Origin: Dictyostelium discoideum
Taxonomy: Eukaryota
Direction of reading: 5' to 3'
DNA length: 64,000 nt
Assembly: GCA_000004695.1 (NCBI GenBank)
Contig: CM000151.3
Coordinates: 736,001 to 800,000 of the forward strand
The notes under the pieces: model-generated
Databases searched by the model: none
What the model was told of the DNA's origin: nothing
What the model saw: only the letters and a program-made list of their open reading frames with translations
Made by a program: the position numbers and the translations under genes
Part shown: piece by piece, positions 35,015 to 36,142 of the stretch
How positions within the stretch are numbered: position 1 is the stretch's first letter
Layout: each line of letters begins with the position of its first letter

Positions 35015-36142
<1,128 letters not shown>

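Follow-up and report, generated by a model that had tools for sequence, protein, structure and literature searches.

An in-frame TGA in Dictyostelium ipkA1 is probably a base-call error of the AX4 reference sequence

Introduction

Among solved structures, the best matches to the Dictyostelium discoideum kinase IpkA1 are human IPMK (PDB 5W2G/6M88) and the IP6K of Entamoeba (PDB 4O4B-F), with best E-values of 3.8e-24 for the single sequence and 7e-39 for an orthologue profile. IpkA1 has the PxxxDxKxG, SSLL-like and IDF(A/T)H motifs in common with these kinases, and differs from them in its N-terminal motif, which is VAGS instead of QVAGH. The gene, named ipkA1 in dictyBase (DDB_G0271760, chromosome 2; PMC8885430 Table 3), has no yeast or mammalian orthologue assigned to it (PMC8885430), and the biochemical activity of the protein is given in Table S1 of King et al. 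as predicted by homology only (PMC2887444). King et al. 2010 amplified a full-length genomic ipkA1 clone and over-expressed it in AX2. According to their text, the over-expression led to Li+ resistance and raised ino1 and impA1 expression, as did over-expression of IpkB, and ipkA1 mRNA is present at about 10 copies per cell (PMC2887444).

In the AX4 reference sequence, ipkA1 carries a TGA within its reading frame. Eukaryotic selenoprotein genes combine an in-frame UGA with a SECIS element in the 3'-UTR. In Dictyostelium, all SECIS elements described by Lobanov et al. 2007 belong to type II; a conserved UGUA precedes their core, and they contain an unpaired AAA (PMC2375036). A relaxed genome-wide SECISearch gave no selenoproteins past the five known ones, with which 75Se labelling also agreed (PMC2375036). 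The in-frame UGA is the only feature that ipkA1 shares with such genes; it differs from them in having no SECIS and no Cys or Sec homologues, and in that its UGA is not conserved. Here we describe the locus, compare codon 13 across strains and species, and weigh the possible origins of the stop.

Structure of ipkA1 in the AX4 reference

The window, which is the whole stretch of 64,000 nucleotides that we analysed, carries ipkA1 on the minus strand of D. discoideum AX4 chromosome 2 (DDB_G0271760; an IPK-family kinase, Q55AP4, XP_645478.1). The window translation was identical to the deposited AX4 protein (100%) outside a 9-residue gap, and neighbouring ORFs corresponded exactly to the AX4 proteins DDB_G0271758, DDB_G0271698 and DDB_G0271802, all of chromosome 2. 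An earlier note, made from the letters of this DNA, had called the gene an inositol-polyphosphate kinase, and we found that Pfam PF03770 (IPK) indeed matches residues 66-303 with E=4.7e-38 (131.5 bits, cut-off 22.2). Furthermore, the catalytic motifs PNIMDIKLG, TSILFLYEG and IRLIDFTH are all present and are invariant across orthologues. Judged by its domain and motifs, IpkA1 is a bona fide member of the IPK superfamily.

The minus-strand frame that starts at the ATG at 36141-36139 reads MNEQNKFQVVAG*TPFKKSKEQEGKVFKECTIKEKQFYESL... and continues through two exons (Table 1). The description of an in-frame TGA at codon 13 of an otherwise intact ORF was therefore correct, although the positions given for it by the earlier note were one base too high: the TGA occupies 36105-36103 rather than 36106-36104, and the ATG begins at 36141 rather than 36142. 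The TGA is a clean single-base change within unique, non-repetitive sequence. From codon 14 onwards there is no in-frame ATG until Met81, the first possible restart, which lies inside PNIMDIKLG; the statement that no alternative start precedes this motif thus holds. A frameshift at the stop was rejected, since the +1 frame after the TGA encodes nonsense and then a stop, while in the zero frame the translation follows the orthologues residue by residue.

Two perfect long (AAT)n/(ATT)n microsatellites were seen in this region, one within the ipkA1 intron (window 35345-35460) and one downstream of the gene (34678-34773). Among strains the ipkA1 intron ranges from 81 to 176 nt, and the length variation comes entirely from the (AAT)n repeat and an A-run.

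Table 1. Features of the ipkA1 locus in window coordinates
Feature	Position	Strand	Remark
In-frame TGA, codon 13 of ipkA1	36103-36105	-	Variable base 36104
ipkA1 exon 1, 627 nt: N-lobe and PNIMDIKLG catalytic motif	35515-36141	-	Boundary confirmed by spliced RNA contig L003
Real intron, 176 nt, GTAATG...AAAG, phase 0, mostly (AAT)n repeat	35339-35514	-	Missing from L003 mRNA; 81-171 nt in other strains
ipkA1 exon 2: TSILFLYEG, IRLIDFTH and DGGYLFG motifs	35015-35338	-	TAA stop 35017-35015
27-nt GT..AG stretch GTTGAACACCATTCAAAAAATCAAAAG, intron in the AX4 model; codes G-S-T-P-F-K-K-S-K	36081-36107	-
3' flank scanned for SECIS	33800-35014	-	None found

Codon 13 in related sequences

The earlier note had suggested a comparison of orthologues. 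When this was done, the codon proved to be Ser (TCA), and the stop was found in no other strain or species. On the coding strand, base 36104 is G in the window and C in all other alleles examined. Two further D. discoideum assemblies annotate a protein (KAM9951571.1 and KAM9972841.1) that is exactly the spliced window protein with Ser13, and their DNA has GGT TCA ACA in place of the GGT TGA ACA of the window. A third D. discoideum assembly has TCA at codon 13 as well, as do D. citrinum, D. firmibasis and D. purpureum. In Polysphondylium violaceum, Heterostelium album, Tieghemostelium lacteum and Acytostelium subglobosum, the sequence VAGST(P/T)F places Ser in the codon-13 column. On this comparison, the ancestral codon 13 is unambiguously TCA, from which the window departs by one C>G transversion, and the TGA is private to the AX4 reference copy among the sequences compared.

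In the closest assembly, GCA_054883475.1, the 948-nt ipkA1 CDS equals that of the window at every base but 36104, and the other 14 mismatches over 7.1 kb are all non-coding. Against more distant alleles and species, the dN/dS of ipkA1 was 0.018-0.086. A degenerating pseudogene is expected to have several lesions and/or a dN/dS near 1, and ipkA1 has one lesion and a low dN/dS. By these measures ipkA1 is under strong purifying selection, with no second lesion.

We also observed that two further assemblies labelled D. discoideum, GCA_054859385.1 and GCA_054859355.1, are only ~80-93% identical to the window in aligned blocks. Their ipkA1 dS against the window is ~0.073, and GCA_054883475.1 differs from the window by roughly 0.2%. 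This suggests that the two assemblies represent deeply diverged lineages or cryptic species sharing one name.

The TGA had been placed at the conserved His of the IPK motif QVAGH. The column itself is consistent with this, since codon 13 aligns with the His of QVGGH in the Entamoeba marina homologue (MAFFT), which is the one alignment in support of the position. The residue is not, as the dictyostelid orthologues all have Ser (VAGSTPF). The alignments to PDB structures, made with the N-terminal 58 residues alone and with the orthologue profile, did not reach the N-terminal motif.

Spliced mRNA and the deposited gene model

The deposited AX4 protein (XP_645478.1 / Q55AP4) has 307 residues and equals the window translation minus residues 12-20 (GSTPFKKSK), a gap that is exactly the product of splicing out 36107-36081. 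Newer D. discoideum assemblies annotate a 316-aa ipkA1 product that contains G12-S13-T-P-F-K-K-S-K20. If 36107-36081 were a true micro-intron, which is how the public model treats it (XP_645478.1 / Q55AP4, 307 aa), the stop would be spliced out of the message; the stretch has GT..AG ends and its length is divisible by three, so that the frame would be restored.

Mature ipkA1 mRNA is present in L003, a Logan RNA-seq contig (SRR24091722) from another D. discoideum strain. The contig has TCA at codon 13 and keeps the 27-nt stretch, and its 176-nt intron has been spliced out at exactly the predicted boundaries. It differs from the window at two synonymous sites and at two sites in the UTR. The 27 nt were thus retained in a spliced mRNA whose local sequence is identical save for the C/G difference, in a strain with the TCA allele, and this bears out the earlier judgement that the sole GT..AG pair able to bypass the stop, at 27 nt, is an implausible intron. 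In addition, GSTPFKKSK is conserved among species of Dictyostelium and, in part, throughout the dictyostelids. The Dictyostelium donor consensus is GTAAGT, and the 5' end of the stretch, GTTGAA, agrees with it at GT only. The A+T content of the stretch, 70%, is coding-like, and its length of 27 nt compares with 81-176 nt for the real ipkA1 intron. Its removal would also take away VAGS, which occupies the place of the inositol-phosphate-binding QVAGH motif. As the stretch is kept in mRNA and encodes conserved residues, we regard the 27-nt intron as an annotation artefact that is effectively excluded as a real intron. It was modelled in AX4 because gene prediction needed to step over the TGA and restore the frame.

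A separate peculiarity of L003 lies at its positions 990-1660, which are chimeric: an A-run joins the ipkA1 mRNA to an unrelated His-rich transcript, and the last ipkA1 codons are replaced. The protein called from the contig ends in ...LKKKKK as a result of this join.

Recoding of the UGA

If UGA13 encoded selenocysteine, IpkA1 would be a sixth Dictyostelium selenoprotein. The UGA does lie inside an otherwise intact ORF, and the remark in the earlier note that Dictyostelium encodes selenoproteins is accurate, as D. discoideum has a Sec-tRNA and five selenoproteins (PMC2375036). The same note had proposed a search for a SECIS in the 3' region, and none was found, either by Rfam over 33500-36400 or by a pattern scan of the 3' flank. 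At E<=10 the Rfam search matched no SECIS family on either strand, and its sole match was a chance greA (E=1.5). The manual pattern scan of the 3' flank found no ATGA within ~500 nt past the stop, none after TGTA, and no ATGA..AA..GA. The first ATGA in this flank is ~500 nt beyond the ipkA1 stop, and over its first 400 nt the flank has a G+C content of 4-12%. Moreover, Sec usually aligns with Cys in homologous proteins; here the residue is Ser (TCA) in all homologues and never Cys or Sec, and the UGA occurs in no other D. discoideum strain. Selenocysteine was therefore rejected on the lack of a SECIS, the Ser rather than Cys in homologues and the unconserved UGA, and its probability is close to nil.

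Programmed or leaky readthrough of UGA13 would yield the full-length kinase in AX4. The ORF past the UGA is fully intact, and eukaryotes generally decode UGA at a low level with near-cognate tRNAs. However, programmed readthrough stops are conserved, and UGA13 is conserved in no relative. Known leaky contexts are, for example, UGA-C and UGA-CUAG, and the context here is UGA-A (TGA ACA), with no structure or motif downstream. As the stop is found in one sequence only and its context is not a known leaky one, readthrough was rejected as very unlikely. At best it would be an incidental leak past a lesion and not a mechanism.

We also looked up 13 conceivable ORF products of the TGA allele, with TTG, GTG or ATG starts, spliced and unspliced, and with the TGA read as Trp or Cys; exact protein look-ups gave no match to any of them. 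A metagenome scan with a 26-mer holding N at the variable base returned 0 matches.

The in-frame TGA is not a recoding signal, and the locus offers no evidence of new recoding biology. The earlier note had listed four options for it. Readthrough and selenocysteine fell away, given the missing SECIS, the Ser TCA in relatives and the unconserved stop, and a sequencing error and a young pseudogene were left. All readings other than a reference error or a real private allele, taken together, retain only a slight chance.

Reference error or private allele

We infer that the TGA is probably a base-call error in the Sanger-era (2002-era) AX4 reference. Codon 13 is ancestrally TCA, and a C>G change at 36104 (coding strand) in the reference turns it into TGA. 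On this reading the TGA is decoded by nothing and is a defect of one sequence rather than a feature of the gene. The real cell would make an ordinary 316-aa kinase with Ser13, the same as the protein in other D. discoideum assemblies, and the 307-aa deposited AX4 protein derives from a 27-nt pseudo-intron called by gene prediction.

Published resequencing of AX4 gives a scale for such errors. Saxer et al. 2012 found 1,916 substitutions against the reference that were common to three AX4-derived lines, with ~11.5 Mb callable per line, and attributed these shared substitutions to reference errors or to clone/ancestor differences (PMC3466296). From these two figures we obtained a reference discrepancy rate of about 1.7e-4 per base. 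In ipkA1, 6.6% of the possible substitutions create a stop. With a discrepancy rate and a stop-creating fraction of this size, some spurious in-frame stops are expected genome-wide.

It is possible, though we consider it rather unlikely, that the TGA is instead a real and very young nonsense allele, private to the AX3/AX4 lineage or to the sequenced clone or, less likely, inherited from NC4. The AX4 reference does have the 14 further private non-coding differences from its closest assembly nearby, so that real private variants occur in this region, and a single lesion in ipkA1 fits a very recent event. On the other hand, a dN/dS of 0.02-0.09 makes a segregating natural nonsense allele unlikely. 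AX3 was made by nitrosoguanidine mutagenesis, which causes mainly G:C>A:T transitions, and a C>G transversion is not the main change expected from it. In addition, the mutation rate measured in AX4, 2.9e-11 per site per generation, is orders of magnitude under the discrepancy rate between the reference and resequenced AX4 (PMC3466296).

The over-expression data of King et al. bear on the same alternative. Their primers ATGAATGACCAAAATAAATTTCAAG and TTTTTGTGGTTGTTGAGGTTGTTG match the ATG and the last codons of the window ipkA1, and AX2 is, like AX4, derived from NC4. A clone ending at codon 13 is not expected to give Li+ resistance, which favours an intact allele in AX2, and the data thus indirectly suggest that the AX2 ipkA1 allele is intact. 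The text of King et al. leaves the strain of the PCR template unstated and describes no western blot (PMC2887444). Coming from AX2, these results would also fit a mutation confined to AX3/AX4. Had the allele been inherited from NC4, it would sit in AX2 too, where the genomic clone behaved as functional.

The forward primer of King et al. differs from the genomic sequences at one codon. It reads ATGAATGACCAA (Asp3), where the window, like every D. discoideum allele, has ATGAATGAACAA (Glu3) at 36133-36135 on the minus strand. Either Asp3 is a typo, or the over-expression construct carries an E3D change, whether engineered or accidental.

In a literature search, DDB_G0271760 was absent from the supplements of PMC4374526, and Q55AP4 appeared in no paper.

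Consequences for gene models and strains

Subject to the base actually present in AX4, the ipkA1 model should have two exons and encode 316 aa with Ser13. Q55AP4 / XP_645478.1 is without nine conserved residues that adjoin the ATP-binding lysine region, and an IpkA1 modelled or expressed from the Q55AP4 record would have the wrong N-terminus. Should the TGA be a true allele of AX4, and perhaps of AX3, which we hold to be possible but doubtful, the reference strain in widest use for D. discoideum would be a spontaneous IpkA1 null, with AX2 and wild isolates being wild-type. The product of such an allele would be no more than a 12-residue peptide, its mRNA would probably be sensitive to NMD, and a hidden strain difference of this kind could affect studies of inositol phosphates and lithium sensitivity as well as comparisons of AX2 with AX4.

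Other features of the window

Several further features were observed in the window. On the plus strand, 52038-55676 holds a continuous 1212-aa ORF that equals ACTFIT_002235 exactly, and the corresponding AX4 model, DDB_G0271806, a PH and Rap-GAP domain protein, has 1167 aa. The shortfall of 45 residues suggests a predicted intron, which may or may not be real. A 366-aa ORF at 7389-8489 on the minus strand has an exact match only in GCA_054883475.1 (ACTFIT_002229), and its cluster holds no AX4 protein; this gene may be unannotated or modelled otherwise in AX4.

Upstream of ipkA1 there are three tandem paralogous genes on the minus strand, at 37062-39360, 40318-42661 and 43738-46211. According to the annotation of GCA_054883475.1, the paralogue nearest ipkA1 has Bmp and 7tm_3 (family-3 GPCR) domains, and segments of the other two are ~80% identical to it in DNA. 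Finally, ~360 nt downstream of the ipkA1 stop, 34482-34655 on the plus strand holds a short, basic, coding-looking ORF of 57 aa that ends in ...RQKRNYAFDMNNLLW. It lies on the strand opposite to ipkA1 and could represent the last exon of a convergent gene.
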